Shown here: in pieces, positions 3,064 through 62,729 of the stretch
Layout: each line of letters opens with the position of its first letter
How positions within the stretch are numbered: position 1 is the first letter of the stretch
Source of the DNA: a virus
Taxonomy: Duplodnaviria > Caudoviricetes
Length of the DNA: 64,000 nucleotides
Virus record (IMG/VR): IMGVR_UViG_3300042474_001076
Span: 24,142-88,141 of that record
Direction: 5' to 3' (one strand)
Notes under the pieces: generated by a model
Seen by the model: the letters and a program-made list of their open reading frames with translations, nothing else
What the model was told of the DNA's origin: nothing
Databases searched by the model: none
Program-made: the position numbers and the translations under genes

Positions 3064-3069
3064 ATAATA

Positions 3070-5842: not shown

Positions 5843-5844
5843 TT

Positions 5845-7156: not shown

Positions 7157-7189
7157 ATAGAAAATAAAATAACTAAATAAAAAAAGACA

Positions 7190-10100
7190 ATGGCAAACAG
7201 TAAAGTATTTGTATCGCCGGGAGTATACACTTCTGAAGTAGATTTAAGTTTCGTAGCACAAAGTGTTGGTGTTACAACCTTAGGTATTGCGGGAGAAACA
7301 TTAAAAGGACCCGCTTTTGAACCAATTTTTGTAAGAAATTACGATGAATTTCAAAACTATTTTGGGGGTACTTCACCCGAAAAATTTATTAACACACAAA
7401 TCCCTAAATATGAGGCGGCATACATTGCGAAATCATATTTACAACAATCTAATCAATTATTTGTAACAAGAATTTTAGGTCTTTCAGGTTATGATGCTGG
7501 ACCATCTTGGTCAATCTTAACTGAAGCAAATGTTAATTGTTCAACAATTGATGTTAATTGTTTTAGTTCAGTGACCGTAAATTGTGAACAACAATGTGTT
7601 ATTCCTTTGGAGTTACCATATTCTGTTGATTTTACGGGATGTACGGATTCAACTTCTAGTATTGAATATATGACACACTTCCCTCAGGAAATATTGGATT
7701 TATTGGATGTGAGTTATGAAACTCCACAAGGAGGAACATCAACTTTGGATAGTAATATAAAAGAATTAATTTTTAATGTAATAACAAATTCAAACCCATT
7801 AATTGCGGAAGACCAATATATTAGTTATTTTGGTAGTGTTGATGATAATGATTATAATGCGTTAACGGTTAATGGATCATACACCGCAACAACAAACGTT
7901 TATGGTGTACCGTCAATACCTTTTAGTGGAAATAATTTATGTGATGGAGCAAACACATCGTGGTATTATTCATTATTTGATAATGTTGGTGGCGGAAGTT
8001 ATACAGGATTCTCATTTTGGTCAATTGTTACTGGTGTAACTAATATTACTCCAATTACAACAACCACAACCGCACCAACAACAACATCAACAACAACCGA
8101 CCCTTGTGTTATTCCTGTTCCAACAACAACAACAACAACAACAAGTCCTATTCCTGTTGAGTGTTTTTCAGGATCAGTAATGGGCGTAATTTATTATTAT
8201 ACAGGAACATCATATACAGAATATGATGATATGGTTGTGGCAACATTTAGATCAAGAGGTATATCAACATATTCAAATGGTAATAACCCAATTTATGAAG
8301 TATCTAATTTGGCAGACGTAGTTTTAGATATGACAGGACAATATTCTGGTGTATTACAAAACCCATATCTACCATTTGGTGTTAATGTTACTAATAAAGA
8401 TGGTGTTAATTTTAACTTTGAAACGTCTTTTGCAACAAGTGACTCACAATATATAACAAAAGTTTTTGGTACGGATAATTTTGGTAAACCAAGAACAGTG
8501 GTTCCTTTATTTGTTGAAGAAAGGTTTCAGGCTTTATTAAACTATGGTTGGAGAAAAGGATTTATTAGAGGATTAAATCCAACATTAGTAGATTTAAATT
8601 CTGCACAAAGTAATGCTTCGGATTCTATTGGTTGGTATTTAGATAAATACCAAACACCAAGTTCTCCTTGGGTAGTATCTGAACTTAGGGGTACAAAAGT
8701 TTATAACCTATTTAAATTTTACACAATTTCAGATGGTGATTCAGCTAATTATGAAATAAAAATATCAATTGGTAATATTTCGTTTTCAAATCAAACATTT
8801 GATGTGTTTATTCGTGATTATTATGATACGGATTCAAATCCAGTTGTGATTGAGAAATTTACTAACTGTAGTATGGATCCAAGTCAAAATAATTTTATTG
8901 CAAAAAAGACAGGTTCATTAGATGGTGAATACCAACTTAATTCTAAATATGTTATGGTAGAAATGAATGAAGATGCTCCTGTTGATGCACTTCCTTGTGG
9001 TTTTGATGGGTTTAATTTTAGAACTTATGGTACCGCAACATCACCATTTCCTGTTTATAAAACAAAATACGATTTTCCTGGAGAAGTTATCTTTAATCCT
9101 CCATTTGGAACACCAATTCAAAGTGGTGGAGATAATGTTAGAAGAACCTATTTAGGTATTTCTAATAATAATAGTTGGGATGGTAATTATTTTGAATATA
9201 TTGGTAAACGAAATACAATCTCAACTTGTGATATTGAAAGTGTTGATTGGAATTATAAATCAAAAGGTTTCCACATGGATAAGGATGCTTCAGGAATAAC
9301 TATTTCAGATGCCTTTACAACATCAGGAACATCTAAATTTAATGTAGGGTCGGCAAATTTCTCATCTGAACCTAATAACCCAACAAGTCCTTATTATAGA
9401 ATTTATTCAAGAAAATTCACTTTATTAGTACAAGGAGGTTACGATGGTTGGGATATATATCGTGAACATAGAACTAACAGTGATAGATATGTTTTAGGAA
9501 GAACTGGTTATTTAAATGGAGCGTGTCCTGATAACAGATATCCAAATGCAGTTGGTTGGGGAGCATTCAAACAAATTGCTGTTGGTGATGGTACTCAAGA
9601 TTTTGCAAATACTGACTACTATGCTTATTTATTAGGAATTCAAACATTCTCTAATCCTGAAGCGGTTAACATTAATGTGTTTGTTTCACCGGGTATTGAT
9701 TATGTTAATAATAGTGACTTAGTTGAATCAACAATAGACATGATTGAAAATGAAAGAGCGGACTCACTTTATATTACAACAACTCCCGATTATAATATGT
9801 TTTTACCAACAACTACAGGTAATGATGGTATTATTTATCCTCAAGAAGCGGTAGATAATTTAGAAACAACAGGAATTGATTCTAACTATACCGCAACTTA
9901 TTATCCTTGGGTGTTAACTCGTGATAGTGTAAACAATACACAAATATATATACCGGCAACTGCTGAGGTAACTAGAAATTTAGCCTTAACAGATAATATT
10001 GCGTTCCCTTGGTTTGCAGCGGCAGGTTACACAAGAGGTATTGTAAACTCAATTAAAGCACGTAAAAAATTAACTCAAGAAGATAGAGACACTCTTTACC

Positions 10101-11992: not shown

Positions 11993-12040
11993 TTTCTTTT
12001 AAATAAAACTAAAATATATCTATTCATAGATACGATATTT

Positions 12041-12077
12041 AATTCCCATATATTAATATGTATGGGAATTTTTTTTT
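12041..12077 (+). terminator. Rho-independent terminator after the tube gene
   Basis: AATTCCCATATAT-TAAT-ATGTATGGGAATT stem followed by a T-run. Confidence 0.8.
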
Positions 12078-12179
12078 ATTAAAATAACAAAATATATTAA
12101 TTATTAAGATTTTAACTAAAAAAAAGAAATATATTTACAAAAAATATAAGTAAAGTATCTTTATAATAAAAAAACAATT

Positions 12180-12944
12180 ATGGAAAACGATTCAAAACAG
12201 TATGGTCAAATGGATTTTAATTTACCTCACGATGTTGTGTCTTTACCTTCGGGTGGTAAATATTATAAATCTAAAAAGAAAAGTGTTAAAATTGGTTATT
12301 TAACTGCTGCCGACGAAAACACTCTTTTAAGTATGAACCCAAATAAAACAATTAAGGAATCAATTGTATTACCGTTATTAAGAAATAAATTATACGAAAC
12401 GGATATTAGACCTGAAGATCTTTTAGATGCGGACATTGAGGCATTATTAATATTTTTAAGAAATACATCTTTTGGTCCTGAATATGTTATAAGTGTTACT
12501 GATCCACAAACAAATAATGAATTTAATGCAACAATATTACTTGATGAATTAAATATTAAAAAAATTAATATTGAACCTGATGATGATGGGTATTTAAAAA
12601 CAACATTACCAAGAACAAAATCTAATGTTAAGTTAAAATTTTTAACTATGAGAGATTCTGTTGATATTGAAAAAACTTTAAGTGGATATCCATCAGGAAT
12701 AATACCACCTATTGCAACTCTTAGATTAAGTAATATGATTGTTGATATTGATGGTAATACTAATAAGGGAGATATTGTTAAGTTTATTGATAATATGCCA
12801 ATAATGGATTCAAAACATATTAAAAACTTTATGTTAGAAAACGAACCAAGATTAGATTTAATAAAAGAAGTTATCGCCCCGTCAGGAGAAAGAGTAATGG
12901 TGAACATTGCTTTTGGGGTGGAATTTTTTCGGCCTTTCTTCTGA
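12180..12944 (+). CDS. Baseplate hub/tail assembly chaperone (T4 gp26-like)
   Basis: LPSGGKYY...YLTAADENTL...LL..D..ALLIFLR..SFGPEY pattern; ends EFFRPFF; lies between the tube and tape measure genes. Confidence 0.7.
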   Translation: MENDSKQYGQMDFNLPHDVVSLPSGGKYYKSKKKSVKIGYLTAADENTLLSMNPNKTIKESIVLPLLRNKLYETDIRPEDLLDADIEALLIFLRNTSFGPEYVISVTDPQTNNEFNATILLDELNIKKINIEPDDDGYLKTTLPRTKSNVKLKFLTMRDSVDIEKTLSGYPSGIIPPIATLRLSNMIVDIDGNTNKGDIVKFIDNMPIMDSKHIKNFMLENEPRLDLIKEVIAPSGERVMVNIAFGVEFFRPFF

Positions 12945-13086
12945 TTACTCAAAATTTATATTAGACGAATTTTATTTATTGGCAAAGATGTTAAGAACAT
13001 CTTATTCCGAGTATTTAAAAATGCCAACATATGTGAGAAGATATCTTATTGATAAAATTATTGAGGAGCACAAAAAAAATAAATAA
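12931..13086 (+). CDS. Unannotated +1-frame extension of the chaperone (gp51/GT-like C-terminal segment)
   Basis: Hand translation: GLSSDYSKFILDEFYLLAKMLRTSYSEYLKMPTYVRRYLIDKIIEEHKKNK*. The 'MP..RR..I' motif is typical of chaperone C-terminal extensions. Overlaps the chaperone stop, with no ATG at the head of the frame. Confidence 0.65.
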   Translation, partial: GLSSDYSKFILDEFYLLAKMLRTSYSEYLKMPTYVRRYLIDKIIEEHKKNK

Positions 13087-13117
13087 TCTATATTTATTAT
13101 AAAAATAGTTTTATTAT

Positions 13118-20091: not shown

Positions 20092-20092
20092 T

Positions 20093-20416
20093 ATGCAGTT
20101 ACAGTATTATAATAGATATAATTCATTTTTACTTAACGGAAAACAAACCGTTGTTCCGTATATTAATTTGCCGTCAAAATCATCAGATAAAAAATATATT
20201 TATAAGGTTGGTACGTCTAGATTAGATAAAGTGTCTCAACAACATTACAATTCACCATTTTTTGGTTGGTTAATTTTACAATCAAACCCACAATATACTG
20301 GACTTGAATTTAATATTCCTGATGGTGCGGTATTGACAATTCCATATCCGTTGTTAACTTCATTACAGGATTATAAAAACGAATTAGATAATCACATATT
20401 CTATTATGGTAAATAA
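20093..20416 (+). CDS. Baseplate wedge LysM-like protein (T4 gp53/P2 gpX-like)
   Basis: RLDKVSQQHYNSPFFGWLILQSNP...IPDGAVLTIP motif. Confidence 0.8.
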   Translation: MQLQYYNRYNSFLLNGKQTVVPYINLPSKSSDKKYIYKVGTSRLDKVSQQHYNSPFFGWLILQSNPQYTGLEFNIPDGAVLTIPYPLLTSLQDYKNELDNHIFYYGK

Positions 20417-36569: not shown

Positions 36570-37028
36570 ATGGCAAATGGAATAACATATGGTTTAACTT
36601 TCCCGTTTAGGGATTCGTTCGTTGGTAGATATTTAGATACCTCTAATGATAGTGATGAAGAAATAAGAAGTAATCTTGTACACTTATTATTAAGTAAAAA
36701 AGGAACAAGATACTTTTTACCCGATTTTGGGTCTAGATTATACGAATATCTTTTTGAACCTTTAGACGGACCAACATTTAGTGAAATTGAAAATGAAATA
36801 AGGGATTCTGTTAGTAAATATATGCCAGGGATCTTAATAACAAACATTAAGATAACCGACGCATCAACAGAAGACCAAAATCAAGGAACATATGTGAATC
36901 AATATGGGGAAAAAGAATTTACGGTACCAAATATATCACAGTTAGAACATACCGCAAAAGTTAGAATTGATTACAAAAATACTAATAATGCATTTAATTC
37001 AAGTGATTTTTTAATTATTAATATTTAA
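36570..37028 (+). CDS. Baseplate wedge subunit (T4 gp25/GPW-like)
   Basis: IRSNL.HLLL..KG.RYFLPDFGSRLYEYLFEP. Confidence 0.92.
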   Translation: MANGITYGLTFPFRDSFVGRYLDTSNDSDEEIRSNLVHLLLSKKGTRYFLPDFGSRLYEYLFEPLDGPTFSEIENEIRDSVSKYMPGILITNIKITDASTEDQNQGTYVNQYGEKEFTVPNISQLEHTAKVRIDYKNTNNAFNSSDFLIINI

Positions 37029-37034: not shown

Positions 37035-38873
37035 ATGGCAAATAAAAAAATATCTTACACAACTAGAGACTTCGCAGGAATAAGAACTGAATTAATAAAC
37101 TTTACAAGATCTTATTATCCCGACTTAGTACAAAATTTTAATGATGCGGGAGTATTTTCGGTATTATTAGATTTAAACGCTGCGGTAACTGATAACTTAC
37201 AATTTCAGATTGATAGAAGTATACAAGAAACAGTATTACAATACGCACAACAAAAGTCATCTATTTATAATATTGCCAAAACTTATGGTTTAAAAATACC
37301 TGGATCAAGACCTTCGGTTGCGTTAGTAGACTTTTCAATAACAGTTCCGGCTTTTGGGGATAGAGAAGATTTAAGATATTGCGGAGTTTTAAGAAGAGGG
37401 TCTCAGGTTAATGGGGCTGGACAACCATTTGAAACAGTATATGATATTGATTTTTCATCACCAACAAATGCCGAAGGATCACCAAACAGACTAAAAATTC
37501 CAAATTTTGATGCAAATAATAATATTACTAATTATACAATAACAAAAAGAGAGGTTATTGTTAATGGTATAACAAAAGTTTTTAAAAGAGTTATTACACC
37601 AAATGATGTAAAACCATTTTTTGAATTATTTTTACCTGAAAAAAATGTTTTAGGTATAACCAGTGTCTTACTTAAAGACGGGACACAATATACTTCTCCA
37701 CCGGAGACACAAGAATTTATATCGTTATTAAATAGATGGTATGAAGTAAAGGCATTGGCGGAAGACAGAGTTTTTGTTGAAGACCCGACAAAACCATCAG
37801 ATCAACCTGGAATTAAAGTTGGTAAATACATTGTTACAAATACTAAATTTATTAGTGAGTATACCCCAGAAGGTTATACTAAAATGACTTTTGGTGGTGG
37901 AAATGTTTCAGCTGATGAACAATTGAGAGAATTTGCAAGAGACGGTGTTGGATTTGATCTTAACAAATATGTTAATAATTTAGCTTTAGGTAGTGCATTA
38001 AAGCCAAATTCAACATTATTTATACAATATCGTGTTGGGGGAGGACAATCAACCAATTTAGGTGTTAACATTATTACACAGATTGGAACAGTTTCGTTTT
38101 TTGTTAACGGACCCTCAGAATCAATTAACTCAACGGTAGTTAATTCACTTAGAGTTAATAATGTTACCGCAGCAATTGGGGGAGCTAATCCACCAACAAC
38201 TGAGGAAGTAAGACAATATGTATCTTATAATTTTTCCGCACAAAACAGAGCGGTTACAATAAATGATTATGAATCGGTATTAAGAACTATGCCGTCTCAA
38301 TTCGGTGCACCGGGTAAAGTATCTATTGTTGAAGAAAATAATAAAATAAAAATTAAAATGTTATCCTACGACACTAATGGTAATCTAACAGAAGTTATTT
38401 CTAACACACTTAAAAGTAATGTTGCAAACTATCTATCAAATTATAGGATGATAAACGATTACATATCCGTTGAGACAGCTAATGTAATAGATTTAAGTGT
38501 TGATGTAGATGTTGTTTTAGACTCAAGTCAAAATCAAGGGTCAGTTGTTGCTAAAATTATTAATATTGTTACACAATATTTTAGTCCAACTGTTAGGGGG
38601 TTAGGTCAAAATGTTTATGTTTCTGAAATTAGAAGATTAATACAGAGTGAAAATGGTATTATTTCTGTTTCAGGAATATTCATTTATAATAAAGTTGGGG
38701 GACAATATTCATCTTCCCAAACTTCACAGGCGTATGAAGACCCATCAACAAAAATGATTAAATTAATTGCCGATACAATATTTGCAGAACCAACTCAAAT
38801 ATATCAAATTAGGTATCCAAACAAAGACATTACCGTTAATGTTCTTAATTTAAAAACAATTAATTTCTCTTGA
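37035..38873 (+). CDS. Baseplate wedge subunit (T4 gp6/baseplate J-like)
   Basis: YTTRDF..IR.EL, YRVGGG...N, A.GGA, QNRAVTINDY. Confidence 0.9.
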   Translation: MANKKISYTTRDFAGIRTELINFTRSYYPDLVQNFNDAGVFSVLLDLNAAVTDNLQFQIDRSIQETVLQYAQQKSSIYNIAKTYGLKIPGSRPSVALVDFSITVPAFGDREDLRYCGVLRRGSQVNGAGQPFETVYDIDFSSPTNAEGSPNRLKIPNFDANNNITNYTITKREVIVNGITKVFKRVITPNDVKPFFELFLPEKNVLGITSVLLKDGTQYTSPPETQEFISLLNRWYEVKALAEDRVFVEDPTKPSDQPGIKVGKYIVTNTKFISEYTPEGYTKMTFGGGNVSADEQLREFARDGVGFDLNKYVNNLALGSALKPNSTLFIQYRVGGGQSTNLGVNIITQIGTVSFFVNGPSESINSTVVNSLRVNNVTAAIGGANPPTTEEVRQYVSYNFSAQNRAVTINDYESVLRTMPSQFGAPGKVSIVEENNKIKIKMLSYDTNGNLTEVISNTLKSNVANYLSNYRMINDYISVETANVIDLSVDVDVVLDSSQNQGSVVAKIINIVTQYFSPTVRGLGQNVYVSEIRRLIQSENGIISVSGIFIYNKVGGQYSSSQTSQAYEDPSTKMIKLIADTIFAEPTQIYQIRYPNKDITVNVLNLKTINFS

Positions 38874-52300: not shown

Positions 52301-52367
52301 ATTGAATACCACCCAAAATTTTGAATTGAATGTGGGAATAAACTTTACTATCCTATGTAACCCATGA
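49350..52367 (+). CDS. Baseplate wedge protein with P2 gpI/T4 gp7-like domain
   Basis: LLKNLAQTLGW...LFKSKGTRKSIE.LL motif typical of Tail_P2_I-like wedge proteins. Confidence 0.6.
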   Translation: MATNKYKCPPQPASGQGTFSDNLVGFQLVDGGGFTQANFEFTTSISEKQDRTFSIGSFSEPISLDTLNISNIEESKKLIADNFRVYPNFDLSQVTNFTMFGSLTKRMSTSVTNIINYFPAALDINNVQTNFVISLTAQNIFYNSVEDETYFEIPISVIRNPFSIDYTVNATRNIELREISVSYLRNFTTQYLKYSLFLNDIEYPISDFIPAQVTDTVFKVYVNGDPFSGNTTTNSNFIIRPKQLYVNKVFNENLDQVENFLLNRNMVPIYSSYFNIPKENDDGQFYYTQEVAIFPLNGSWNLDIITPKFTNYLTKLNSLSESIDLYKTNLITRFLTADAIKEFDTSDQKIQKVLQIYGRSFDETRKFITALANMNSVNYNIKNDIPSQLLKNLAQTLGWNTNISPITNDQLLSSVFSNGSNSFTGLPIGQTPEELNYQYFRNLILNSAFLFKSKGTRKSIEILLRMVGAPEALTEFNEYIYLADQKINLRQFDIQYAQISGGTYSQELPVLDTNDLFSIMGVQYTGFTTTTITQDISLTNNDYPIDSYGFPSMPVPNDTYFFQIGGGWFESTPQHRMPEKVDLTNSVFTGSNPNYQTKLLPFNYGQEYLERYRSFPYMNLGFNLKKTVDNKKSWINNEKFLRKNFDGNFNAYYKVSDDRLVINVKNVDLFMNPSQGLVYDVWTMSRKYNYPIPEQGLSYIDPTYCNPYPNVEYPSRGGIDWTQIIPKPKEKTFFEFAQTFWKNMINVRNRQFNTDGKTSGYPTLSSIYWKYLESGMAINIPNDNFNYQTMIDYVNGMGDYWIRLVEQMIPATTIWNTGVKYENSIFHRQKFVWRRQRGCEIIPVPCKPCKLITQIFSYDCPIQQTVIGLYPWDTNPTITSFGALLGSSLTTYGNDNNLDINNDCLLNTLESDWYIDIRIDGSPIIIYPFFNGVGFSNPTLSTPTENNWVDSLYDSLTNLLDYGLSYTINTDDQTITIYNNNCLPLNTTQNFELNVGINFTILCNP

Positions 52368-54817
52368 GTTGTGGACAAATAATATATAATCTTTATATCT
52401 CTGGTGATTGTACTAATACTAATGTTGGAGAAATTTACATTGAGATAACTGGTGGTACTTCACCCTACACTGTATATGAAATTTCCTCAACAGGTTTATT
52501 ACCAACATCAGCATCCACAACAACTTATTATTTTAGTGGTATGTCTGCCGGCACATATAGTTTGGCAATCCAAGACTCGTGTATAAATCCAACTTTTGAT
52601 ACAATATACTTAAACATACCAATATCATCGGGAACATCTATAAGTGTTGAAAATGTAATAAATACAACTTGTGGTAATGATGATGGAGAAATAACATTTG
52701 GGTTTAATCCTTTTTATGGGTTTGGATCTGCATTGCTTTATGAAACAACAAACGGGTATATAAATAGTGGGTCAACACCAACTAGTGGAATAACCTTTTC
52801 AAATTTATCGGGAGGAACTTATTATATTGTTGGTGATGATGGTGCAGGGTGTAATGGAGTAAGTTCGAGCGTACCAATTTTATCATCAACAACTTTTTCT
52901 TACGGGTTTTATGTTGTTGACGATGCAAGTTGTAATGTTGCTTTTGGTTCGGGAAAAATATTTGTTACTGGACAAACAGGAGTTGGTCCTTATACATATG
53001 TTTGGAATGATGGACAAACAGGATCTACAGCAACTGGATTAACGGTTGGATATTACACTGTTACCGTAACAGATTCAAATGGATGTTCCGTTTCCGATAG
53101 TATTTCGGTTAATAATGTTCCGCCAATTGGAATATCTTCTTTTTTAACAACAGGAAGCACTTGTTTTAATAGTGATGGTGTGGTTGAAGTCACTGTTACT
53201 GGAGGGACAGCACCATTCTTTTTTTCTGGATCTAATGGGGATACAATAGTTACATTCTCAAACACATACACATTTCAAAATTTACCTTCAGGTATTTTAA
53301 CCGTTACTGTTAAAGATGCTGGATTATGTAGTGATACTCAATCAACTTCGTTAACAACACCCAATGGATTTACTATTTCATCAATTAACACAACAAATTC
53401 TAATTGTGGTAATAATGGGTCAATAACAATAGTTGTTAATACTGGATCCCCTACGGGAACATTTACCTATACGTTACTGAATTCTTCCGGAAATACGGTT
53501 AATACAACAACTGTTGGTACTAACACAACTTTTAATAATTTACAATCAGACACATATACAATTTTGATTGATAATAATTCAGGATGTGTTTATACTGGAA
53601 CCACAACAGTTACAAATGTTAATTTGTTTACAATAACTGCGGTTACAACTAATACCACATGTGGATTAAATAATGGTACCTTACAGATATTAACAACTAG
53701 TGGGGGTACATTACCATATACTTATCAAATTACTGGATACGCAATATCTCCAATTAATTTTTATAATAATTTACCTTTTGGGTTTTATAATGTTACCGTG
53801 ACCGATGCAAATGGTTGTTCACAAACAACAACAGCATATGTTGGACCATCAAATTCCGTATTTTTTAATTTATTTGCAATACAACCTGTTAATGGAAATG
53901 ATGGTGAAATAAGTTCTTTTTTAAGTAGTGGTTATCCACCTTTTACTTATAATTGGAGTTCAAATGTAAACTCACAAACTGGATCAACAGTAACTAATTT
54001 AAGTGCGGGAACATATACATTACAAGTTGTTGATAGTTCTGGATGTACACATACTAAATCAATTGTTTTATCAGGAACTATACTTTTAGGTAATTATCAA
54101 GTTTACAATATAAGTGACACTAATTTTGTTAATACTGGAATTGATGGTATGAGAGGAATAGGACAAATGTATAGTGAGGGATTTTTTGATTTAACATACA
54201 ATGATTTAGGGTGTGTAATTAATGGTGCAGAATTTATTATTGAAACAAGTGTAAATGGGGTGATAAAACAAAACTTATTTTATACCTCAATAGGACTTTA
54301 TGATTACCCAACAGATATTGAATGGATTAATATAATAAAATTAATGTTATTATCTTATCCGGATATTGGTGAAGTTGATATAGACATTGTTAAAAACAAA
54401 ATAACTATTGTGAATGATTGTGAAGACATCAATAAAAGTTGTGTACCAACTAAATTTAATACGTTATCTGATGCAAAAGTTGTAATTAATTTAATAATAA
54501 ATTATGATATTTCTTGTGTTGAATGTGATGTCCCTACACCAACACCATCCCAAACAAATACCCCAAATTTAACACCGACCCCAACACCGACCCCAACATT
54601 TGTAAATAAATGGATAGTTTCCGATTGTTGTGGATTAGTTTCAAATATTATTTTAATATTACCTTTAGGGACTATTGCGGGTCAATTATTAGTGTACAAT
54701 AGTAATTGTTGGACCACAGTTTCAACAACTAATGGTACGGCAGTTGGTACCGCAACCCCATTTCTTTTTTCCAGTAATTGTCCAACGTGTATAGCATCAT
54801 ATCCATGTAGTGGGTAA
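52364..54817 (+). CDS. SprB-repeat adhesin/tail fibre protein with PT linker and Cys-rich C-terminus
   Basis: About seven repeats of C....G.I.....GG..PY.Y.W......L..G.Y.V.V.D..GC; PTPTP tract at 54532-54598. Confidence 0.75.
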   Translation: MSCGQIIYNLYISGDCTNTNVGEIYIEITGGTSPYTVYEISSTGLLPTSASTTTYYFSGMSAGTYSLAIQDSCINPTFDTIYLNIPISSGTSISVENVINTTCGNDDGEITFGFNPFYGFGSALLYETTNGYINSGSTPTSGITFSNLSGGTYYIVGDDGAGCNGVSSSVPILSSTTFSYGFYVVDDASCNVAFGSGKIFVTGQTGVGPYTYVWNDGQTGSTATGLTVGYYTVTVTDSNGCSVSDSISVNNVPPIGISSFLTTGSTCFNSDGVVEVTVTGGTAPFFFSGSNGDTIVTFSNTYTFQNLPSGILTVTVKDAGLCSDTQSTSLTTPNGFTISSINTTNSNCGNNGSITIVVNTGSPTGTFTYTLLNSSGNTVNTTTVGTNTTFNNLQSDTYTILIDNNSGCVYTGTTTVTNVNLFTITAVTTNTTCGLNNGTLQILTTSGGTLPYTYQITGYAISPINFYNNLPFGFYNVTVTDANGCSQTTTAYVGPSNSVFFNLFAIQPVNGNDGEISSFLSSGYPPFTYNWSSNVNSQTGSTVTNLSAGTYTLQVVDSSGCTHTKSIVLSGTILLGNYQVYNISDTNFVNTGIDGMRGIGQMYSEGFFDLTYNDLGCVINGAEFIIETSVNGVIKQNLFYTSIGLYDYPTDIEWINIIKLMLLSYPDIGEVDIDIVKNKITIVNDCEDINKSCVPTKFNTLSDAKVVINLIINYDISCVECDVPTPTPSQTNTPNLTPTPTPTPTFVNKWIVSDCCGLVSNIILILPLGTIAGQLLVYNSNCWTTVSTTNGTAVGTATPFLFSSNCPTCIASYPCSG

Positions 54818-54878
54818 TATAAGTTTTTATATTAATTAACAATATTGACTTATTACACATATACTATATTTTAGTTAT

Positions 54879-55859
54879 ATGGAAGATATTATTTTTGTGT
54901 CCGCTCAACCTGATGTTCCTTATTTTCATTGGCAAATAAAACTTTATACTCATAACTTTATTGAAAAGGGAATTAATCCTTGTCAAATTCATGTTATTTT
55001 TGGATTAACTAATGGACAAACAGAACCTTCTAAGGGAGCGTTAGAACTATGTGATTACGGGTTTAATGTACATTTTTACATTGATGATAGAATAAGTAAA
55101 AATTATATCCCAAGTATCAAACCATATTTAATATCAAGATGGTTATTTGAATATCCTGAATATGGTAAAACTTTTTTCTTACATGATGCGGATATTATTT
55201 TTAGAGTATTACCCGATTTTAATAAATTAATGAATGATGATATTTCTTATTTATCGGATACAATTGGTTATATCGGATACAACTATATAATGGATTGTTG
55301 TAACAGATATGAAAAAGCACACCCAAAATCAGAAAAAGGTCAATTATTAAAAGAAATGGCAAATATTGTTGGAATAAACGTTGACATAATTAAAGATAAC
55401 CAAGAAAACTCAGGTGGGGGTCAATATTTATTGAAAAATATGACATATAGTCTTTGGGAAAAAATATATTTGGATTGTTATCCTCTTTATAAACAAATGC
55501 ATAGTTATCACAAAAGACACCCAATAAGTCCTGGTGAAATCCAATTTTGGACGGCAGAAATGTGGTCTTTATTGTGGAATTTATGGTTATTAAATTATGA
55601 TACTAAAGTTGTTGATGATCTTAATTTTTCTTGGGCAACAGATAATTTAAAAGTATATGAAGAAAGACCTATTTTACATATGGCTGGAGTTACAGATAAT
55701 TTAAAAAGTAATAAATTTTATAAAGGAGAATATATTACAATTGACCCTATTTTAAAACTTAAAGAAAACCCATCCCACTTTGATTATATTGAAATTAATA
55801 GTACAACAATAAAATATATTGAAGTAATGAAATCATTTATTCAAAAAACAATAAATTGA
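54879..55859 (+). CDS. GT-A glycosyltransferase resembling plant peptidyl-Ser/Hyp O-glycosyltransferases (GT96 SERGT/GT95 HPAT)
   Basis: YFHWQ, YIPSIKPYL...WL, LHDADIIF (DxD), GGGQYLL, WTAEMW, ILH in the same order as the SERGT/HPAT motifs YF.WQ, Y..INKP....WL, D.D, W..EMY, I.HY as I recall them. Confidence 0.65.
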   Translation: MEDIIFVSAQPDVPYFHWQIKLYTHNFIEKGINPCQIHVIFGLTNGQTEPSKGALELCDYGFNVHFYIDDRISKNYIPSIKPYLISRWLFEYPEYGKTFFLHDADIIFRVLPDFNKLMNDDISYLSDTIGYIGYNYIMDCCNRYEKAHPKSEKGQLLKEMANIVGINVDIIKDNQENSGGGQYLLKNMTYSLWEKIYLDCYPLYKQMHSYHKRHPISPGEIQFWTAEMWSLLWNLWLLNYDTKVVDDLNFSWATDNLKVYEERPILHMAGVTDNLKSNKFYKGEYITIDPILKLKENPSHFDYIEINSTTIKYIEVMKSFIQKTIN

Positions 55860-55887
55860 TTATTTATATAGTAAAGAAATAACTTAA

Positions 55888-57948
55888 ATGGTTTATCAAG
55901 TAATAAATAGTGGTTCGGTAATTTATAATAACTTTACGTTTACTGACGACAATAACGTTATTAAAGTGGTTGATTTATCACCTGGGGTTTCTTATTATAT
56001 TAATGGTAATATTAGTGTTACAAACCCACTCTTATATATTAACTCACTTACAAAAGGAACAATAAGATATTGTTTTCAAAGTTGTTGTAATGATGATTCT
56101 TTTTATTTTGACGGACCACCTACATCAGTTTTTGGAAATTATTTAAATGGTGTTATAATTTATTTTAATGAGGCCTTACTATCTTCAAACCCTAATAATT
56201 ATAAATCTGGTTGTTATGAATTAGTTGGACGTGGTCTTTCCTCCACATATGACTGTAGTATAGTTGGATCTGAAAGTGTTACTTTAGTTCAGTTTAATGT
56301 TAATGAGTATAATAATTGTGATACCTGTGTTATAGATAATAGTTGTTGTACTAATTATTTTGTAACTAATCAATCCTCACAAAACGTTAAGACAAAGATT
56401 GAATTTACTCCATGTTGTGATGAGGGAAAAAAATCACCATATAATATGCCTTACCAAACAGGTATTTCTATATGTAGCTCAACAGGAGTAAAAGTTTTAT
56501 CGGGAGATATACAAATTATTAACAATGGTAAATGTACCCCTTGTACAATAACAACTACGACTAACCCGATTGTTACAACAACAACAACTTTTGCACCACC
56601 AAATCCACCAATTGAACCTAAAAACGAATGTGATGTTATAACAATTTTTCCTCTCGGTGTTGAATGTTTTACAGTTGACCCATTAACATCAAGTTCTTTT
56701 GACGGGTTAATTACTTTAGGTATAACAGGGGGGACTCCTCCTTATGAGGTTATTTGGGAAAACGGATCTATCTCACAATCTTTAAGTAATCTTGGGGTTG
56801 GAAAATATGATTCAATCGTTACTGATTATTACGGGGATTTTACGGCATATACCACTTGTGTTTTAGGGGTTGAAATACCAATTACAACAAGTACAACAAC
56901 TTTTAATCCTTTACCGATATACGAAGATATCTGTCTTACAATTATAAGAGGAAATAAACAACAATCTTATGTTGAATATTATGAATTTCAATATAATGGG
57001 TACATTGATGATTACCCAACTTGGGAGGATACTATAAATAGTTTAGATATTGTATGGAATCTTAATGGTAATCAATGGCAAGTATCGGGTTGGACGGCGG
57101 GACAAATAATTAATATAAACAGTTCTACCCCACCATTATTTGGGTGGAATTCGATTGGAACATCATTACCTAATCAAATATTATCAATAACCGCAAATTT
57201 AGGATTATGTAATAAACTTAGTACTCCCAACTTAACAATAAGAGTTAATAGACCCGAATGTGGTTGTGATGGAAGTATATTATTAACTCCTTTTGGGGGA
57301 ACACCACCATATGAGTATTCAATCAACGGAGGATCAACGTATCAACCTACAACAATATATAATAACTTATGTCAAGGATCATATATTGTTTATGTCAGAG
57401 ATTCTTCAGGATTTACAAGTACTCAAACGGTTGTTTTACCTCCCCCAACTTCAAGTATAAACTATATTGTTACTATGTCTTACGCTTCTACTATATTTGG
57501 TACTAATGTGTTTAATGTAAATGTCTCTCCTTTATTACCAATTGGTGTAACGATTACTTTTGATGTAATTCATACTAACACATTTACCGTTGGACCATCA
57601 GCGGCAGCTGCCACTTATAACAACATAGCAACATTAAATGTTAATGGATCACCCGTCACCGCCACTAATCAATCAATAACTCCATTCTTACCACTTCCAC
57701 AAACATTTCCTTGTCAAGCATCTTTTAAATATTCCACAACAAGACAATATAATTGGATTAATTTATCTATGACATCAGGAACTATTATAAACGGTTCTTA
57801 TACTGATACAATATCTCCCGTTTTACCAACACCAAATTGTTTTATTGCAAACAGATACTACCACATTTATTTAAATAATGTAAAAATAAATAATAATTGC
57901 GATACGGTAAGAGTAGTTAATCCTTTAGGTGTGGGGATAAAAAAATAA
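55888..57948 (+). CDS. Cys-rich fibre/adhesin protein with SprB-like repeats and poly-Thr linkers
   Basis: GGTPPYEV.W and GGTPPYEYSI...Y.VYVRDSSG repeats; TTTT tracts at about 56545-56590 and 56884-56901. Confidence 0.65.
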   Translation: MVYQVINSGSVIYNNFTFTDDNNVIKVVDLSPGVSYYINGNISVTNPLLYINSLTKGTIRYCFQSCCNDDSFYFDGPPTSVFGNYLNGVIIYFNEALLSSNPNNYKSGCYELVGRGLSSTYDCSIVGSESVTLVQFNVNEYNNCDTCVIDNSCCTNYFVTNQSSQNVKTKIEFTPCCDEGKKSPYNMPYQTGISICSSTGVKVLSGDIQIINNGKCTPCTITTTTNPIVTTTTTFAPPNPPIEPKNECDVITIFPLGVECFTVDPLTSSSFDGLITLGITGGTPPYEVIWENGSISQSLSNLGVGKYDSIVTDYYGDFTAYTTCVLGVEIPITTSTTTFNPLPIYEDICLTIIRGNKQQSYVEYYEFQYNGYIDDYPTWEDTINSLDIVWNLNGNQWQVSGWTAGQIININSSTPPLFGWNSIGTSLPNQILSITANLGLCNKLSTPNLTIRVNRPECGCDGSILLTPFGGTPPYEYSINGGSTYQPTTIYNNLCQGSYIVYVRDSSGFTSTQTVVLPPPTSSINYIVTMSYASTIFGTNVFNVNVSPLLPIGVTITFDVIHTNTFTVGPSAAAATYNNIATLNVNGSPVTATNQSITPFLPLPQTFPCQASFKYSTTRQYNWINLSMTSGTIINGSYTDTISPVLPTPNCFIANRYYHIYLNNVKINNNCDTVRVVNPLGVGIKK

Positions 57949-57971
57949 ATAAATAAATATTTATACATAAA

Positions 57972-60506
57972 ATGTCATATATAATAAAAAATACATCAGG
58001 ACTTGTTAACACCAGAATAACGGATACTGGCAGGTTAAAGATGTCACAAGGAAATTTTAATATAAGTTATTTTCAGGTAGGAGATAGTGAAGTTTCTTAT
58101 GATAAAGTTTCTGTTAGTTATAATCAAGTTAATAGTTTTGTCTTAACTCCACCGTTTGGAAGTCAAAATAGTGACGGAATACCACAATCAAATAAACAAA
58201 ATGTTAAATACCCATATTATGTGGATAATATTGGGGGAAATACATACGGAATTCCATACATGGACTCAACAGTTGAGTCTGTATTTAATCGGGCTCCTTT
58301 AAGGGGGTTTTTTAGTGGTAACACAACCGCAAGTACAATTAATTGGAGTGCGTTAACAAGTAATAATTATGTTAAAACTTCTAATTATTTGGTAAATCCA
58401 TTATCATTAAATGGTACTAATGAAATAACTTTAATTTATTCGGGATGTAACACATCTTCATTTGGAGGTTACGAGGTTGGTGATTTTATTACTATTTATT
58501 TTGATGGTTTAGGATGTGAAAATTGTTCATGTACCAATTTACCAACACCAACACCAACGGCATCACAAGGGTCCACACCCACACCTACTCCAACACCATC
58601 AGTAAGTAGTGGTTACATTAATTGTGAAAGTCCAACCCCAACACCCACCCCTACAAAAACAGAATGTTTGACACCAACACCAAGTAGACAATGTCCCGCA
58701 CCACCTGACCCCGTTTGTTTGATGTCATTATATAGTTGTTATCCAATTTTAACTTATAGAATTATTGCAATTTGTGAAAATAAAGTAACATTAGATAGAA
58801 CAACACCAGATTTTGGATTAATAAGTGACGAATGTTGTTTTAGAGCTTTAGTTTACCCTAAAAGTATGACAGATTTATATGATAGTATAACTCCAAGTCC
58901 ACATTGGGGTGATGACGTTATTAATTACGAAACATTATGTGATGTTGATAATTTTGACGTTAAAATTTGGAACATGAATATTCCTTGGACCGAAAATCCT
59001 GCTGGATTATTACCAACACAACATGAAGATTATACTTATTTTGGGTCTGTTAATTATATTGGTAGTAAAGAGTATTTTGGGTATAATTCAAACTTAGGAC
59101 AGACATTTTACGTAAATTCAGTATTAAGTGCTGAAACTACTGACACTTATTATTATAATTCATTTGATGAGGTTATTAAAGTTGAACCTGAAGAACAAAA
59201 AACAATTGCAATTATTCATTATACAAACCAAACGATTGATTTCTTTTATGGTGAAAAATTTGCGTTAGAACCATACGACACATCTAATCCTAATAATACA
59301 ACAGGTCAAGCTAGAAATTTTAAATTATATATACCATGGATTATGTGGCATAAAAATCCACAATGTTGTTTTGGATCTACTTTTTGGGTTGATCCACCTG
59401 ATTTTGAAGATAAAAACTTATTTGAAGTTCATTATATGGAATCAAATCAAAATAATGATATGAATAATCCTGGGTTAAGATATTATCACTTATGGGACAC
59501 ACACCCAAACAATGATGGATTACCAAGTAGAATTGGTAAAGTATTTCCAGATAGTCAAACAATTATTATTGATGATGAAGAAATTGTCGCAGCGTTATCT
59601 TATAAATCAAATAGAAATTGGACATTACCCGCACCACAAGTTTCTTTAATAACTCCAAATATTTGTGATACTACCTCGGGAGAAATTAATGGTATATTAA
59701 CAGGAAACAATGAAACTATGTATATTACATATAGAATTAGTAATGATTATGGTTTTACAAATTCATTACATTCTAATTATTATGTTAAAATTGTGGGTAA
59801 TAATAATGATTGTTTTCCTGATACATCTAAAAATGTTGCAATAAGATTTGGGGGAGAATTTGGATGTTTGGTTGTTCCTGGATATAATCCAACAACAACA
59901 ACAACTACATTTGGACCTATAACAACAACTACAACACTTAATCCTATTGTTACGACAACTACAACAATATGTCCTACCTGTGATATTCCAAATGGATTTT
60001 ATGGGACTAAATTTGAAGTATTGGCACAAAAAGTACCTACAGGGACAAGACCAGATTCTTCAAAATGGAAATTAATTGATTTTACTAATACTATAAGTGG
60101 ACAAACAATTAATGGTTATCTTACTGAAGATGCATTAACAGGAACTACATTTATTGTTACTGAATCGTTATATAATTCGGCACCATTCTATGATTTAAAT
60201 CAATATATTAATTTAACCCCTATTGGTAATGTTGGACCAAAATTAAATTTTGGAGATGAGTATTATTTCTACGGAGGTATTGAAACTGATATACAAGCAA
60301 CAATATATGAAATGATGTATAAGATTAATTTAAATTATACTGAATTTCAAAAAACATCAAATCCAACTTGGAAATCAGGAACTAATTCTTATATTACTGA
60401 AATAGCGTTGTTAGATGATAAAAAAGACGTATTAGTTGTCTCAAAGTTACAATCTCCTGTTTTAAGACAAGGAATTCAACAATTCTTAGTTAAGTTTGAT
60501 TTATAA
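57972..60506 (+). CDS. Tail fibre-attachment/baseplate protein with PT and poly-T insertions
   Basis: N-terminal T.ITDTGR....G...I.YF..GDSEV and C-terminal YITEIAL.D....LVV.KL..P resemble split tail-collar/fibre-base domains; PT tract 58542-58684, T tract 59890-59967. Confidence 0.55.
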   Translation: MSYIIKNTSGLVNTRITDTGRLKMSQGNFNISYFQVGDSEVSYDKVSVSYNQVNSFVLTPPFGSQNSDGIPQSNKQNVKYPYYVDNIGGNTYGIPYMDSTVESVFNRAPLRGFFSGNTTASTINWSALTSNNYVKTSNYLVNPLSLNGTNEITLIYSGCNTSSFGGYEVGDFITIYFDGLGCENCSCTNLPTPTPTASQGSTPTPTPTPSVSSGYINCESPTPTPTPTKTECLTPTPSRQCPAPPDPVCLMSLYSCYPILTYRIIAICENKVTLDRTTPDFGLISDECCFRALVYPKSMTDLYDSITPSPHWGDDVINYETLCDVDNFDVKIWNMNIPWTENPAGLLPTQHEDYTYFGSVNYIGSKEYFGYNSNLGQTFYVNSVLSAETTDTYYYNSFDEVIKVEPEEQKTIAIIHYTNQTIDFFYGEKFALEPYDTSNPNNTTGQARNFKLYIPWIMWHKNPQCCFGSTFWVDPPDFEDKNLFEVHYMESNQNNDMNNPGLRYYHLWDTHPNNDGLPSRIGKVFPDSQTIIIDDEEIVAALSYKSNRNWTLPAPQVSLITPNICDTTSGEINGILTGNNETMYITYRISNDYGFTNSLHSNYYVKIVGNNNDCFPDTSKNVAIRFGGEFGCLVVPGYNPTTTTTTFGPITTTTTLNPIVTTTTTICPTCDIPNGFYGTKFEVLAQKVPTGTRPDSSKWKLIDFTNTISGQTINGYLTEDALTGTTFIVTESLYNSAPFYDLNQYINLTPIGNVGPKLNFGDEYYFYGGIETDIQATIYEMMYKINLNYTEFQKTSNPTWKSGTNSYITEIALLDDKKDVLVVSKLQSPVLRQGIQQFLVKFDL

Positions 60507-60559
60507 CAAAAACTTTAGTTTTACAACGATATAGTTATATTATAATTAAAAATAAGTTT

Positions 60560-61168
60560 ATGCGAACATCAATTAAAAATTCACCTAAAGTCTTAGGGTT
60601 AGACATTTCCACTAAAACAATAGGTTGGGCACTTTTTGATATTAAATCACAAGAATTACTAGAATTAACTCATGTATCCCCGAGACCAAAAAATAAAGAT
60701 ACGGAAGAAAATAAAATGTTAGAATTAATATTAAAATCTGAAGTATTTAAAACTAAATTGGAAGGATATAAAAATTTAGGGATTGTTAGTGTTATAATTG
60801 AAGAACCATTATTAAACTCAAACAATGTTTATACTATTCAAACTTTACTAAGATTTAATACATTAATATGTAAAACAATTTATGATATGATAGGTATTGT
60901 TCCTGAATTCATATCTACATATAACTCAAGAAAATTTGCGTTTCCTGAATTAGTAAAAGAAAACGATAAAAAAAAACATGTTTTATTTGGAGGACTTCCT
61001 AAAGATATAGACAAAAAAATGATTATTTGGGATTTAGTTGCAAAAAAAGAACCCCAAATACAATGGCATTACACTAAAAACAATACTTTAAAGAAAGAAA
61101 ATTTTGACCAAACAGATGCTTATGCGTGTGTTTTAGGTTATATGAAAAGTAAAAAAATTTGGGATTAA
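60560..61168 (+). CDS. RuvC-like Holliday junction resolvase
   Basis: VLGLDISTKTIGWA, IIEEP, D..DA catalytic motifs of the RNase H fold. Confidence 0.8.
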   Translation: MRTSIKNSPKVLGLDISTKTIGWALFDIKSQELLELTHVSPRPKNKDTEENKMLELILKSEVFKTKLEGYKNLGIVSVIIEEPLLNSNNVYTIQTLLRFNTLICKTIYDMIGIVPEFISTYNSRKFAFPELVKENDKKKHVLFGGLPKDIDKKMIIWDLVAKKEPQIQWHYTKNNTLKKENFDQTDAYACVLGYMKSKKIWD

Positions 61169-61223
61169 TATCGTTTAATTTAACGATAATTTGAAATATC
61201 GTCTTTTTAGACGATATTTTTTT
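61169..61223. terminator. Double hairpin/bidirectional terminator between convergent genes
   Basis: TATCGTT-N6-AACGATA (61169-61188) and AAATATCGTCT-TTTT-AGACGATATTT (61194-61219) with a T-run. Confidence 0.75.
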
Positions 61224-61234
61224 GTTTTATATTT

Positions 61235-62506
61235 TTAATTTGGTGTTGGAGTTGGAGTTGGAAAACAATCAATTCCAGTATTTGTTACAGATATTGACCC
61301 ACTCAAAGAATATGGTGTTGAAAATGAATTAACTATAATACTTTGAGACACATTTAATGTTTGAGATATAATAACACCTAATAAATTTGTATAAACATAA
61401 GTTTCGGGTGATGTTGAAAGATTACTTAATAAGTATTGTACACAAATACCATTACAACAATCACCAATATTTGTAATAGTTGCAGACCCAACACCAATTG
61501 TAGGTATATTTTTAGAACAAATAATTACCTCATGATTTAACCAATTAGTCCAACGCATAGATCCAGGTCTTAACATAATGTTTTTACCAACACAATCTAA
61601 AAAACTAATTGTTGTGGTTAAAACACTAAAGTTCGAAATTCTATATGACAAACATAAACAAGGTGTTGTTGGTGTTGGTGTTATAGTAGGAGTTAATGTA
61701 GGAGTATTACTAATTGGGAAACAATTTAAACAACTACCTTCACTAGAAGGACCATATTCTGTAGTAATAACAACTTTGTCTCCACCACTTATGTTATCTA
61801 CAATTGTTTGAAAAATAAAACATGAAGATATTCCGTTTATTGTTCCACCATAAACGTCACCAACAACTAATAAATTACCAAAAGAATCAAATAATGTTTG
61901 TGTTGTATAGTATTCTATACCTGTAAAACAATCCTCAAATTTCTTACTAGTTGCACATACAATAAACCCATCAACACTATTAAATTTGGCAATACCATCA
62001 AAATTACATGGTCTATCAATTGGTGATGAAGGTGTGGGGGTTAATGTTGGTGTCGGAGTTGGTGTCGGAGAATATGTGTTTGCGGTAACATCTAAAGATA
62101 CTCCCCCACAAACATTAGTTGGTGTTGGTGTTGGAGTTAAAGTTGAGGTTGGTGTTGGGGTAGGAGTTGGGGTAGGAGTTACAAATACGTCACAATCAAA
62201 TAGTGCATCAAAATCAATAGAACAAGCTAGGGTTGGGGTTGGAGTTGGGGTTGGGCATAAACCGTCAACAAGAATTCCAGAATAAAAATCAGGACATGGA
62301 TTAACGGAATTTGTTGGACCAAATAAAATACAAGGATCTCCCAAGTTTGCAGCTAAACACCATCTACTTTCTGTTGTTGAATAAAAAATGTAATAACCAT
62401 TAGTGGCTCCCGTATAATAATCTAAACTATTATATAAACCATCTATTGTATACGTATCATCGTATATCCCCGTATTACTTATACAAATATCTATACTACA
62501 ACTCAT
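61235..62506 (-). CDS. Cys-rich, PT-repeat (mucin-like) modular protein, putative virion decoration/fibre
   Basis: Five PTPT tracts separating Cys-bracketed modules similar to those in the 55888 and 52364 proteins. Confidence 0.65.
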
Positions 62507-62507
62507 A

Positions 62508-62729
62508 TTATATATTTAACGTATCTGTAACGACACAATCATTATTATCAACCACCTTAACAATAAATTCGGTTAAACTAGAATAAACTAAAGGAATATC
62601 AAAACTATATGGAATGTCAACCGTATTAATGGTTGCGACATAAATACAAGTAGTAATTGGTGAATCACAAACATAAATATCAAATGGTTGTGCTCCCGTA
62701 ACGTTATTAATTGTTATATTTGTTGGCAT
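62508..62729 (-). CDS. Small beta protein resembling a single SprB-like unit
   Basis: ITI..VTG..PF.IY...IVKVVD.N.C pattern; TATTTAT motif 5 nt upstream; coupled to the PT gene. Confidence 0.6.

Follow-up and report, generated by a model that had tools for sequence, protein, structure and literature searches.

What does an uncultured jumbo phage do with a glycosyltransferase gene that lies amid genes for fibre-like proteins rich in threonine and proline-threonine tracts? This question is raised by the window, i.e., the whole analysed stretch of 64,000 nucleotides of an 88-kb viral contig, which contains a single copy of the gene. The answer that we consider probable is that the 326-aa DxD enzyme, a GT-A protein from a distant branch of the HPAT/SGT1 enzymes, glycosylates poly-Thr tracts in the particle proteins of its own phage. 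The features on which the argument depends are as follows.

8057..8143, plus strand: T5 (8057-8071) and T7 (8123-8143) runs in the tail sheath gene (7190-10501), a candidate distant acceptor.
52364..54817, plus strand: gene -1, an SprB-repeat protein of 817 aa, whose one PT linker is TPTPTPTP at 54572-54595.
54879..55859, plus strand: predicted GT-A glycosyltransferase gene, 326 aa, soluble, phrog_4417, with DAD at residues 103-105.
55888..57948, plus strand: gene +1, a 686-aa, Cys-rich (3.6%) SprB-repeat protein, a candidate acceptor.
56551..56589, plus strand: poly-Thr tract in gene +1, with TTTT at 56551-56562 and TTTTT at 56575-56589.
57972..60506, plus strand: gene +2, a candidate acceptor, 844 aa and Cys-rich, with PT tracts and poly-Thr runs, three of each.
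58542..58655, plus strand: three (PT)n linkers in gene +2, which the comparison across the family does not support as acceptors.
59892..59966, plus strand: three T5-T6 runs in gene +2, in P-x-T5 units flanked by conserved Cys.
61235..62506, minus strand: PT-tract protein, 423 aa, Cys-rich (5.4%), with five (PT)x3 repeats at 61244-62254 and no poly-Thr run.

The open reading frame that an earlier note had singled out as a DxD enzyme is present, and its motif is conserved. Among 52 homologues D105 is invariant, as are H267, Q222, W224, M228 and W229, and D103 is kept in at least 90%. The protein matches phrog_4417, a profile annotated as "unknown function", over its full length (E 2.5e-66; residues 6-319 against profile positions 3-290 of 293). 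No match was found in NCBIfam or in Pfam (E<=10), and single-sequence and profile searches of the PDB returned nothing usable, with no solved structure matched by sequence. The AlphaFold model (pLDDT 97.2, pTM 0.94) is a compact globular domain from residue 5 on, with a Rossmann-like GT-A fold and DxD motif. The fold comparison proposed in the earlier note placed glycogenin first (Z 15.1), followed by Skp1 alpha-galactosyltransferase (14.6), LgtC (14.3), UGGT (14.1) and GlyE (13.5), that is, GT8/GT24 enzymes at Z 13-15; WbbM was also among the matches, and a Foldseek search with the model gave E 1e-6. Judged by its model, the protein is a GT-A glycosyltransferase nearest to GT8-type enzymes.

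LgtC and WbbM also lend something to a different reading, in which the enzyme alters a host envelope glycan (LPS, teichoic acid or capsule), blocking superinfection or changing a receptor, and the Thr tracts are unrelated linkers. Serotype-altering phage glycosyltransferases are well known (PMC12619734). Against such a role, the protein has no membrane segment (maximum 19-residue Kyte-Doolittle mean of 0.61), and its gene lies within structural modules and not near integrase or lysogeny genes. We regard an envelope target as very improbable, also in view of the covariation described below.

Plant GT95/GT96 enzymes transfer arabinofuranose to Hyp or galactose to Ser in extensin-type motifs, and HPAT/SGT1-type enzymes are membrane-anchored proteins of the secretory pathway with a type II anchor. 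A resemblance to these families had been proposed from motif order, and it stands as remote homology, but not as membership in PF23452. In hhalign, the phage family aligned with 24 bona fide bacterial PF23452 proteins (23 with PF23452.2 and one matched at 30.6 bits) at 95.8% probability (E 7.3e-9, 223 columns), and the Y..WQ, DxD, W.AEMW and H motifs lined up. Reversed alignments scored 0.8-2%, and GT60 and GT7C-type domains 0.2-0.6%. A single-sequence comparison reached only 34% probability. In the ESM Atlas, HPAT was the nearest named set (18 of 30 named hits), and JGI names the PF23452 relatives peptidyl Ser/Hyp transferases. The Pfam gathering threshold for PF23452 is 23.9 bits. The 326-aa protein missed it, with no match at E<=10, and scores in hmmsearch were 7-16 bits. 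Just two of the 52 homologues matched PF23452, at E 0.09 or weaker, and none of 105 further homologues did so at E<=0.01; neither the 326-aa protein nor these 105 relatives reached any Pfam glycosyltransferase family. The PF23452 and PF23741 (DUF7164) models had no match in the contig itself or in four phage records. Because the hhalign result is strong and its controls stay at or below 2%, the plant-type guess is best restated as remote homology without Pfam membership. The enzyme falls below the Pfam threshold and is soluble, and it can thus be called a relative of HPAT rather than a member. As judged by one profile-profile comparison and by embeddings, the phage family is a remote homologue of the PF23452 HPAT/SGT1 family.

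The enzyme family is large (815 cluster representatives at E<=0.001), with members in freshwater jumbo phages and in phages or prophages from lactobacilli, enterococci, staphylococci, clostridia and Bacteroidota. A diverse set of 159 IMG/VR viral loci, comprising 26 enzyme clusters at 60% identity, was used to compare the surroundings of the gene. In 127 of the 159 loci and in 24 of the 26 clusters, a run of T5 or longer is found no more than two genes from the enzyme, against 30 of 1551 genes at least four positions away; coupling counts throughout this analysis are inflated by kinship. A stricter tract measure gave a similar outcome. (PT)x3 repeats, by comparison, occur near the gene in only 7/159 loci. 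The co-occurrence with PT or Thr tracts anticipated in the earlier note is therefore found for poly-Thr and not for PT repeats. Its idea that the phage glycosylates Thr/Ser in its own virion proteins gains from this coupling, from the GT-A fold and from the HPAT homology, and it loses PT linkers as substrates. A strong Thr tract is absent from the nearest two genes on each side in 32 of the 159 diverse loci and in 45 of 79 bacterial loci, and the long fused bacterial forms all lack one nearby, with the exception of L375.

The same association is visible in isolate phages. In the four inspected, phiFL2A, phiCTP1, Iacchus and MA9V-3, the gene directly 5' of the enzyme carries poly-Thr, and homologues of the enzyme directly follow tail-tube or capsid genes with poly-Thr ends. 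Among tail-tube relatives from Enterococcus phages, the glycosyltransferase accompanies 12/12 proteins with a C-terminal poly-Thr tail and 0/15 without it, which an envelope target leaves unexplained. Among Enterococcus capsid relatives, 68 nearly identical loci have both tail and enzyme, five have neither, and none has the tail without the enzyme. Comparison of genomes thus links the family with Thr-tract particle proteins across numerous unrelated phages, and the partner common to the family is poly-Thr rather than the PT repeat. Given this recurrence, it is probable that these phages put a sugar coat on their own particles.

Could enzyme and tract simply travel together? The tracts might be unglycosylated flexible linkers within a mobile cassette, and the target of the enzyme might lie elsewhere, for example, in DNA bases. 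Siphophages have the tail right next to the gene, where a single insertion could carry both, and DNA glycosyltransferases are known from phages (PMC12619734). However, the tracts in question are found at internal sites of differing proteins, on either side of the enzyme gene and, in the sheath, up to 47 kb from it; the coupling extends across nearly all clusters, and the nearest profile relatives are protein O-glycosyltransferases. We give this explanation very little credence, and the glycosylation of poly-Thr tracts is retained as the preferred reading.

Within the window, the tracts of the four large neighbours listed in the earlier note are all in place, and so is the similar tract claimed for the sheath gene, as T5 and T7 runs. 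Chance was controlled with 2000 residue shuffles per protein, counting T5+ runs or (PT)x3 repeats. The observed counts, far above chance, were reached in 0/2000 shuffles for every protein except that of 55888-57948, whose single T5 run was reached in 20/2000. Tracts of [PTS]6+ occur in 9 of the 57 ORFs of the contig, and four of these lie 55-75 kb upstream, outside the window. The description of the neighbours as virion-type is partly borne out. SprB repeats are present in 52364-54817 (E 1.6e-21) and 55888-57948 (E 1.5e-9), a weak match to phrog_26672 ("virion structural protein") was obtained among the neighbour genes, and gp25-like and gp6-like baseplate genes lie upstream of these neighbours. 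An AlphaFold model of the 844-aa gene +2 protein, built on a 43-sequence alignment, is too poor to build on (pLDDT only 52.3); its segments below 50 include residues 190-246 (PT tract) and 638-669 (poly-Thr tract).

The own lineage of the phage, represented by 80 related loci that count as one lineage, repeats the pattern on a smaller scale. Of 74 related loci, 72% have a T or PT tract in gene +1, and of 72 loci, 78% have a tract in gene +2, against 0% for genes at least seven positions from the enzyme. At the 59892-59966 site the number of poly-Thr units differs between relatives. Two homologues lack this tract, and no glycosyltransferase was found in their records; the tract is also missing in L040, L069 and L078, which bear the enzyme. 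Four records with a conserved 1005-aa neighbour had no glycosyltransferase match, but they are fragments, 20-41% complete, and they retain short TTTT and PTPTPT tracts.

The earlier note had also read the promoter motifs as a hint that the enzyme is expressed before its substrates. The motif positions are correct: TATTTAT occurs at 55861 (before 55888) and 57958 (before 57972), none was found ahead of the glycosyltransferase gene, and TTGACT-16-TATTTT lies upstream of it at 54845-54872. The timing itself is unsupported, as it relies on consensus matches at chance frequency. Sigma-70-like sites in the region number 77 versus 74 ± 9.9 in shuffles, and TATTTAT is not enriched in total (84 sites versus 74 ± 8.6). 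TATTTAT is found within 60 nt 5' of 12/35 plus-strand starts and its reverse complement in 5/35.

In the proposed mechanism, a soluble, metal-dependent (DxD) enzyme would act in the host cytoplasm late in infection and would move a sugar from a nucleotide sugar to threonine hydroxyls in poly-Thr tracts. Its acceptors in the window would be the products of the two genes directly downstream and probably the sheath protein, and the virion would come to carry glycosylated linkers of a mucin-like kind. The fold, the remote homology and the tight comparative coupling of the family to poly-Thr are results of the analysis. The tracts as acceptors, the enzyme as starter rather than extender of the glycan, the sugar and any benefit, possibly stiffening, shielding from proteases or antibodies, or adhesion, are inferred.

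The role of starter has to be weighed against other enzymes on the contig. A 415-aa GT60 protein (PF11397, E 1.6e-71), an FkbM methyltransferase/HtrL fusion and a GT9-like fragment are encoded elsewhere on it amid PT-rich proteins. The GT60 protein is a candidate polypeptide transferase, so the 326-aa enzyme could extend a glycan that the GT60 or a host enzyme has begun on the tracts. Fusions to GT60 point in the same direction; they were found in three of 80 long representatives of the family and in seven of 79 bacterial-genome proteins scanned. Fusions as a whole count for the preferred reading: a second glycosyltransferase domain (GT60, GT7C, GT2, GT6, GT29, GT25 or O-FucT) occurs in 15/80 long representatives, and GT7C in 15 of the 79 bacterial-genome proteins. 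Small siphophages, however, show the family member as the sole glycosyltransferase-like gene beside a poly-Thr tail. At annotation level only, phiCTP1 has no further one in 66/86 features. The JGI naming of PF23452 homologues as peptidyl transferases likewise speaks against a mere extender, and we consider that role unlikely. A division of labour between two enzymes is also unlikely: the family, as viral branch of the HPAT/SGT1 superfamily, would be a dedicated "mucin-type" initiator on poly-Thr and would serve fibre-like proteins and sheath, GT60 would serve the PT-repeat proteins clustered near its own gene, and the methyltransferase/HtrL fusion and GT9-like protein would finish the glycan, giving a bacterial virus a eukaryote-like mucin coat.

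A literature search, in which subscription journals were poorly covered, found no paper that connects phage glycosylation with this enzyme family or with poly-Thr tags. If glycosylation of poly-Thr holds, an unnamed family writes a simple, recognisable tag on capsids, tail tubes, sheaths and fibres, and virion glycosylation could be predicted from sequence. Phage therapy would be concerned because of immune recognition and stability, protein O-glycosylation would gain a soluble tool directed by a tag, and the enzymes that glycosylate cell-wall proteins in plants would be connected with a reservoir in bacteria and viruses.

Among known systems, HPAT/SGT1 enzymes share about 220 columns of remote homology with the phage family, including the Y..WQ, DxD, W.AEMW and His motifs. 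A further likeness may lie in the acceptors, since the plant enzymes act, and the phage enzyme would act, on residues with a hydroxyl group in protein tracts of low complexity that resemble mucin or extensin. In contrast to the plant enzymes, the phage-encoded protein is soluble, without an anchor, and would act in the bacterial cytoplasm, on poly-Thr instead of Hyp/Ser in Pro-rich motifs. Retaining GT8-type enzymes that act on proteins, namely glycogenin, Skp1 alpha-galactosyltransferase (6mw8) and GlyE (5gvv), which belongs to the pneumococcal serine-rich repeat protein pathway, share the GT-A fold and DxD over 211-231 aligned residues, but sequence identity is just 8-13%. Another parallel is offered by mycobacteriophages, in which phage-encoded glycosyltransferases lie beside capsid and tail-tube genes and glycans are placed at subunit C-termini (Freeman et al. 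2023, Cell Host Microbe, as cited in PMC12619734 and PMC10877033). Measurements of virion glycosylation by phage enzymes are reported from mycobacteriophages alone, with an effect on recognition by antibodies. The same gene adjacency is seen for homologues of our enzyme, which directly follow tail-tube or capsid genes ending in poly-Thr; the window gene sits among fibre-like genes. The difference is that the tag here would be a poly-Thr run and that the jumbo phage tracts lie inside fibre-like proteins and the sheath, as linkers.

The window lies on contig G000:C1, a single viral contig of 88,141 bases, of which it makes up positions 24142-88141. The G+C content is about 30%. CheckV puts the contig at 30% complete, which would make the full genome that of a jumbo phage. 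Encoded in the window are T4-type baseplate proteins and a set of replication genes (a gp32-like protein, a UvsX-like recombinase, a DnaB-like helicase, ribonucleotide reductase, and a primase); after the gp6-like gene, very large ORFs succeed one another up to 60506. The nearest cultured relative of the sheath, from Microcystis phage Mel-JY01, aligns with 66% of the protein at 32% identity, and no near isolate of this phage was found. The main features are as follows.

7190-10501, tail sheath, with poly-Thr runs
11504-11992, tail tube
36570-37028, gp25-like wedge protein
37035-38873, gp6-like wedge protein
52364-54817 (+), gene -1, with (PT)n repeats
54879-55859 (+), 326-aa enzyme
55888-57948 (+), gene +1, with poly-Thr
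57972-60506 (+), gene +2, with poly-Thr runs and (PT)n repeats
60560-61168, RuvC-like resolvase, within the span 52364-62729 considered here, with no bearing on glycosylation
61235-62506 (-), minus-strand gene, with (PT)n repeats

A 364-aa Fe/Mn superoxide dismutase is encoded at 599-1693 (-); about 160 residues at its N-terminus form an extension that matches no family.

It had been proposed in an earlier note that the 326-aa enzyme is of the plant GT95/GT96 type and glycosylates PT/T tracts in the virion proteins of the phage itself. The ORF and every tract listed there were found where they had been placed. Such tracts occur in nine of the 57 ORFs of the contig, four of them outside the window, and all of the tract-bearing proteins are rich in Thr and contain 2.3-5.4% Cys. 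Tract counts were never equalled when residues were shuffled within each protein (0/2000), with the exception of gene +1, whose single T5 run was equalled in 20/2000 shuffles. Poly-Thr runs and (PT)n repeats are two tract types that should be kept apart.

The enzyme matched no Pfam or NCBIfam family, but it did match phrog_4417 ("unknown function", E 2.5e-66). It is encoded by one gene copy in the contig and has no hydrophobic segment. From an alignment of 52 sequences of its phage-type family, AlphaFold gave a model with a pLDDT of 97.2, in which the predicted fold is GT-A. The top structural matches were GT8-type enzymes, several of them with protein substrates, and had Z scores of 15.1 for glycogenin, 14.6 for Skp1 alpha-galactosyltransferase, 14.3 for LgtC, 14.1 for UGGT, 13.7 for WbbM, and 13.5 for GlyE; Foldseek returned E values of about 1e-6 and TM scores of 0.40-0.46. 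D105, H267, Q222, W224, M228, and W229 are invariant in the alignment and D103 is nearly so.

The resemblance to GT95/GT96 held at the level of remote profile homology, although the Pfam HPAT model gave no qualifying match in the enzyme or its relatives. In the ESM Atlas, HPAT-bearing clusters were the nearest named sets (18 of 30 named hits), which serves as a lead only. Bona fide PF23452 (HPAT/SGT1-type) genes were then located in bacterial genomes, and 97 relatives with the precomputed Pfam entry PF23452.2 were gathered, many of them named by JGI as "peptidyl serine alpha-galactosyltransferase" or "hydroxyproline O-arabinosyltransferase". When 24 of these were aligned and compared with the phage-type alignment by hhalign, the match reached 95.8% probability (E 7.3e-9, 223 columns), and the motifs Y..WQ, YIPSIRP/YPPYNK, DxD, W.AEMW, His, and FYKG.Y/WDKR.Y aligned in order. 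Reversed alignments gave 0.8-2.0%; for GT60 and a GT7C-type domain, both GT-A families drawn from fused relatives, the probability was 0.2-0.6%. The family is thus truly, if distantly, related to the HPAT/SGT1-type peptidyl O-glycosyltransferases, without belonging to the Pfam family. A retaining mechanism is at most suggested by the GT8-like fold of the model and by analogy with the plant enzymes.

In a Candidatus Microthrix MAG (loci L515, G009:C1:12656-16300, and L392), a bona fide PF23452 HPAT-type gene and the gene for a 1012-aa fusion protein are about 4 kb apart. The fusion protein joins the phage-type domain to F5/8-C and GT60 domains, so that a single bacterial gene cluster holds both branches of the superfamily.

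The family is widespread. A HMMER search over 1.84 billion cluster representatives gave 815 matches at E<=0.001, of which 288 also passed E<=1e-30. Among the best 150 representatives, 80 were at least 380 aa long; 15 of these 80 carried a second recognisable GT domain (GT60, GT7C, GT2, GT6, GT29, GT25, or O-FucT), and F5/8-C, methyltransferase, and radical-SAM domains were single cases. Homologues were present in 77 of 50,697 phage records, mostly from phages infecting Lactobacillus, Enterococcus, Staphylococcus, Lactococcus, or Clostridium, and in one case Chryseobacterium. The 80 best loci in bacterial genomes came mainly from Bacteroidota, Bacillota, and Acidimicrobiia, and the 79 proteins scanned from them included GT60 in seven and GT7C in 15. 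Fusions of about 570-590 aa with a GT7C-type domain recur in Chitinophagaceae/Sphingobacteriaceae (L366, L380, L383, L389, L395, L398, L399, L414, L428, and others), with no Thr-tract gene within two genes of them.

Across phages, the enzyme gene is coupled to poly-Thr. Four isolate phages have poly-Thr in the product of the gene immediately before the enzyme gene: in phiFL2A and phiCTP1 it forms the C-terminal tail of the tail-tube protein, in MA9V-3 it lies in a 428-aa protein, and in Lactobacillus phage Iacchus the upstream gene encodes gp072, a small Thr-repeat protein. At 6949-7990 of Iacchus (L004), two small proteins in succession, gp071 and gp072, are encoded just ahead of the enzyme gene, and they terminate in Thr repeats or are largely composed of them. 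The 128-aa gp072 has the annotation "major tail protein", yet Thr-rich repeat accounts for over half of it. Of the 27 relatives of the tail-tube protein of phiFL2A in IMG/VR, all 12 with a poly-Thr end had the enzyme gene next to them, whereas none of the 15 without it did, and the two states interleave across identity groups. Among relatives of an Enterococcus capsid protein, tail and gene occurred together in 68 loci, which are nearly identical and thus amount to about one event; neither occurred in five and the tail without the gene in none, while two had the gene behind a truncated capsid frame and five had flanks too short to judge. A more diverse sample was drawn from two scans that used distant members as seeds: 160 loci, one of them without a callable gene, leaving 159 in 26 clusters at 60% identity. 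T5+ runs were found within two genes of the enzyme in 127/159 loci and 24/26 clusters, against a background of 30/1551 genes four or more positions away. The proposed co-occurrence therefore stood for poly-Thr but not for PT repeats, as (PT)x3 was near the gene in only 7/159 loci (S5+ in 3/159), and PT linkers find no comparative support as acceptors of this enzyme. Such a Thr tract was nearby in 34 of 79 bacterial loci, almost all short, stand-alone, prophage-like forms; long fused forms mostly had none.

Within the window's own lineage, the best 80 IMG/VR loci have 58-98% identity and lie on contigs of up to 318 kb; in 79 of them an enzyme gene could be called, and the analysis covered these. 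T or PT tracts were present in gene +1 in 72% of 74 loci and in gene +2 in 78% of 72, and in no gene seven or more positions from the enzyme. These loci are relatives, so they show conservation of the tracts and not independent association. Three enzyme-bearing relatives (L040, L069, and L078) have no tract at the site equivalent to 59892-59966 of gene +2, and two distinct gene +2 homologues from fragmentary records without an enzyme match also lack it. At this site, one to five P-x-T5 units stand in tandem between conserved cysteines, their number varying among relatives (homologous sites in L005-L192); some relatives have long PT/ST-type tracts in place of the array, or extra Cys-rich domains that break it up. 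L354, a 5.3-kb contig assigned to a Candidatus Woesearchaeota MAG, carries a 66%-identical enzyme copy with a poly-Thr protein two genes away and is probably a misbinned phage contig of this lineage.

The motif TATTTAT occurs within 60 nt upstream of 12/35 plus-strand gene starts, mostly of structural genes, and its reverse complement in 5/35 of the same windows. It lies 12-53 nt before the starts (for example, at 7150, 11451, 13091, 14993, 38924, 55861, and 57958) and may act as a late-promoter element; its resemblance to the T4 late promoter is loose. The enzyme gene has no upstream TATTTAT, and sigma-70-like sites before it are as frequent as expected by chance.

In the mechanism proposed as most likely, a cytoplasmic, DxD-dependent GT-A enzyme would glycosylate Thr within the poly-Thr tracts of proteins of the particle, either ahead of its assembly or in the course of it. 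The analysis shows the fold, the homology, and the coupling; poly-Thr as the acceptor, the initiating role, the sugar, and any biological benefit are what we infer. A second glycan-related cluster lies upstream of the window at G000:C1:88-20321, where the following glycan proteins and PT-rich, Cys-rich proteins are interleaved.

88-576, GT9-like fragment
2952-4571, PT-rich, Cys-rich protein
4633-5880, GT60 enzyme (PF11397, 415 aa, E 1.6e-71)
7890-10280, FkbM methyltransferase and HtrL_YibB fusion, 796 aa
10319-11581, PT-rich, Cys-rich protein
11575-13413, PT-rich, Cys-rich protein with a protease domain
15384-20321, PT-rich, Cys-rich protein

The GT60 enzyme, the FkbM/HtrL fusion, and the GT9-like fragment suggest a larger glycosylation system in this phage. 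They also leave some room for a less likely rival reading, in which the enzyme elongates a glycan instead of starting it.

Plant HPAT/SGT1-type enzymes are membrane-anchored, whereas the phage enzyme is soluble. In the literature covered, which leaves most subscription journals outside, nothing was found on this enzyme family or on poly-Thr tags in phages. Phage virion glycosylation is already on record for mycobacteriophages (PMC12619734, PMC10877033).
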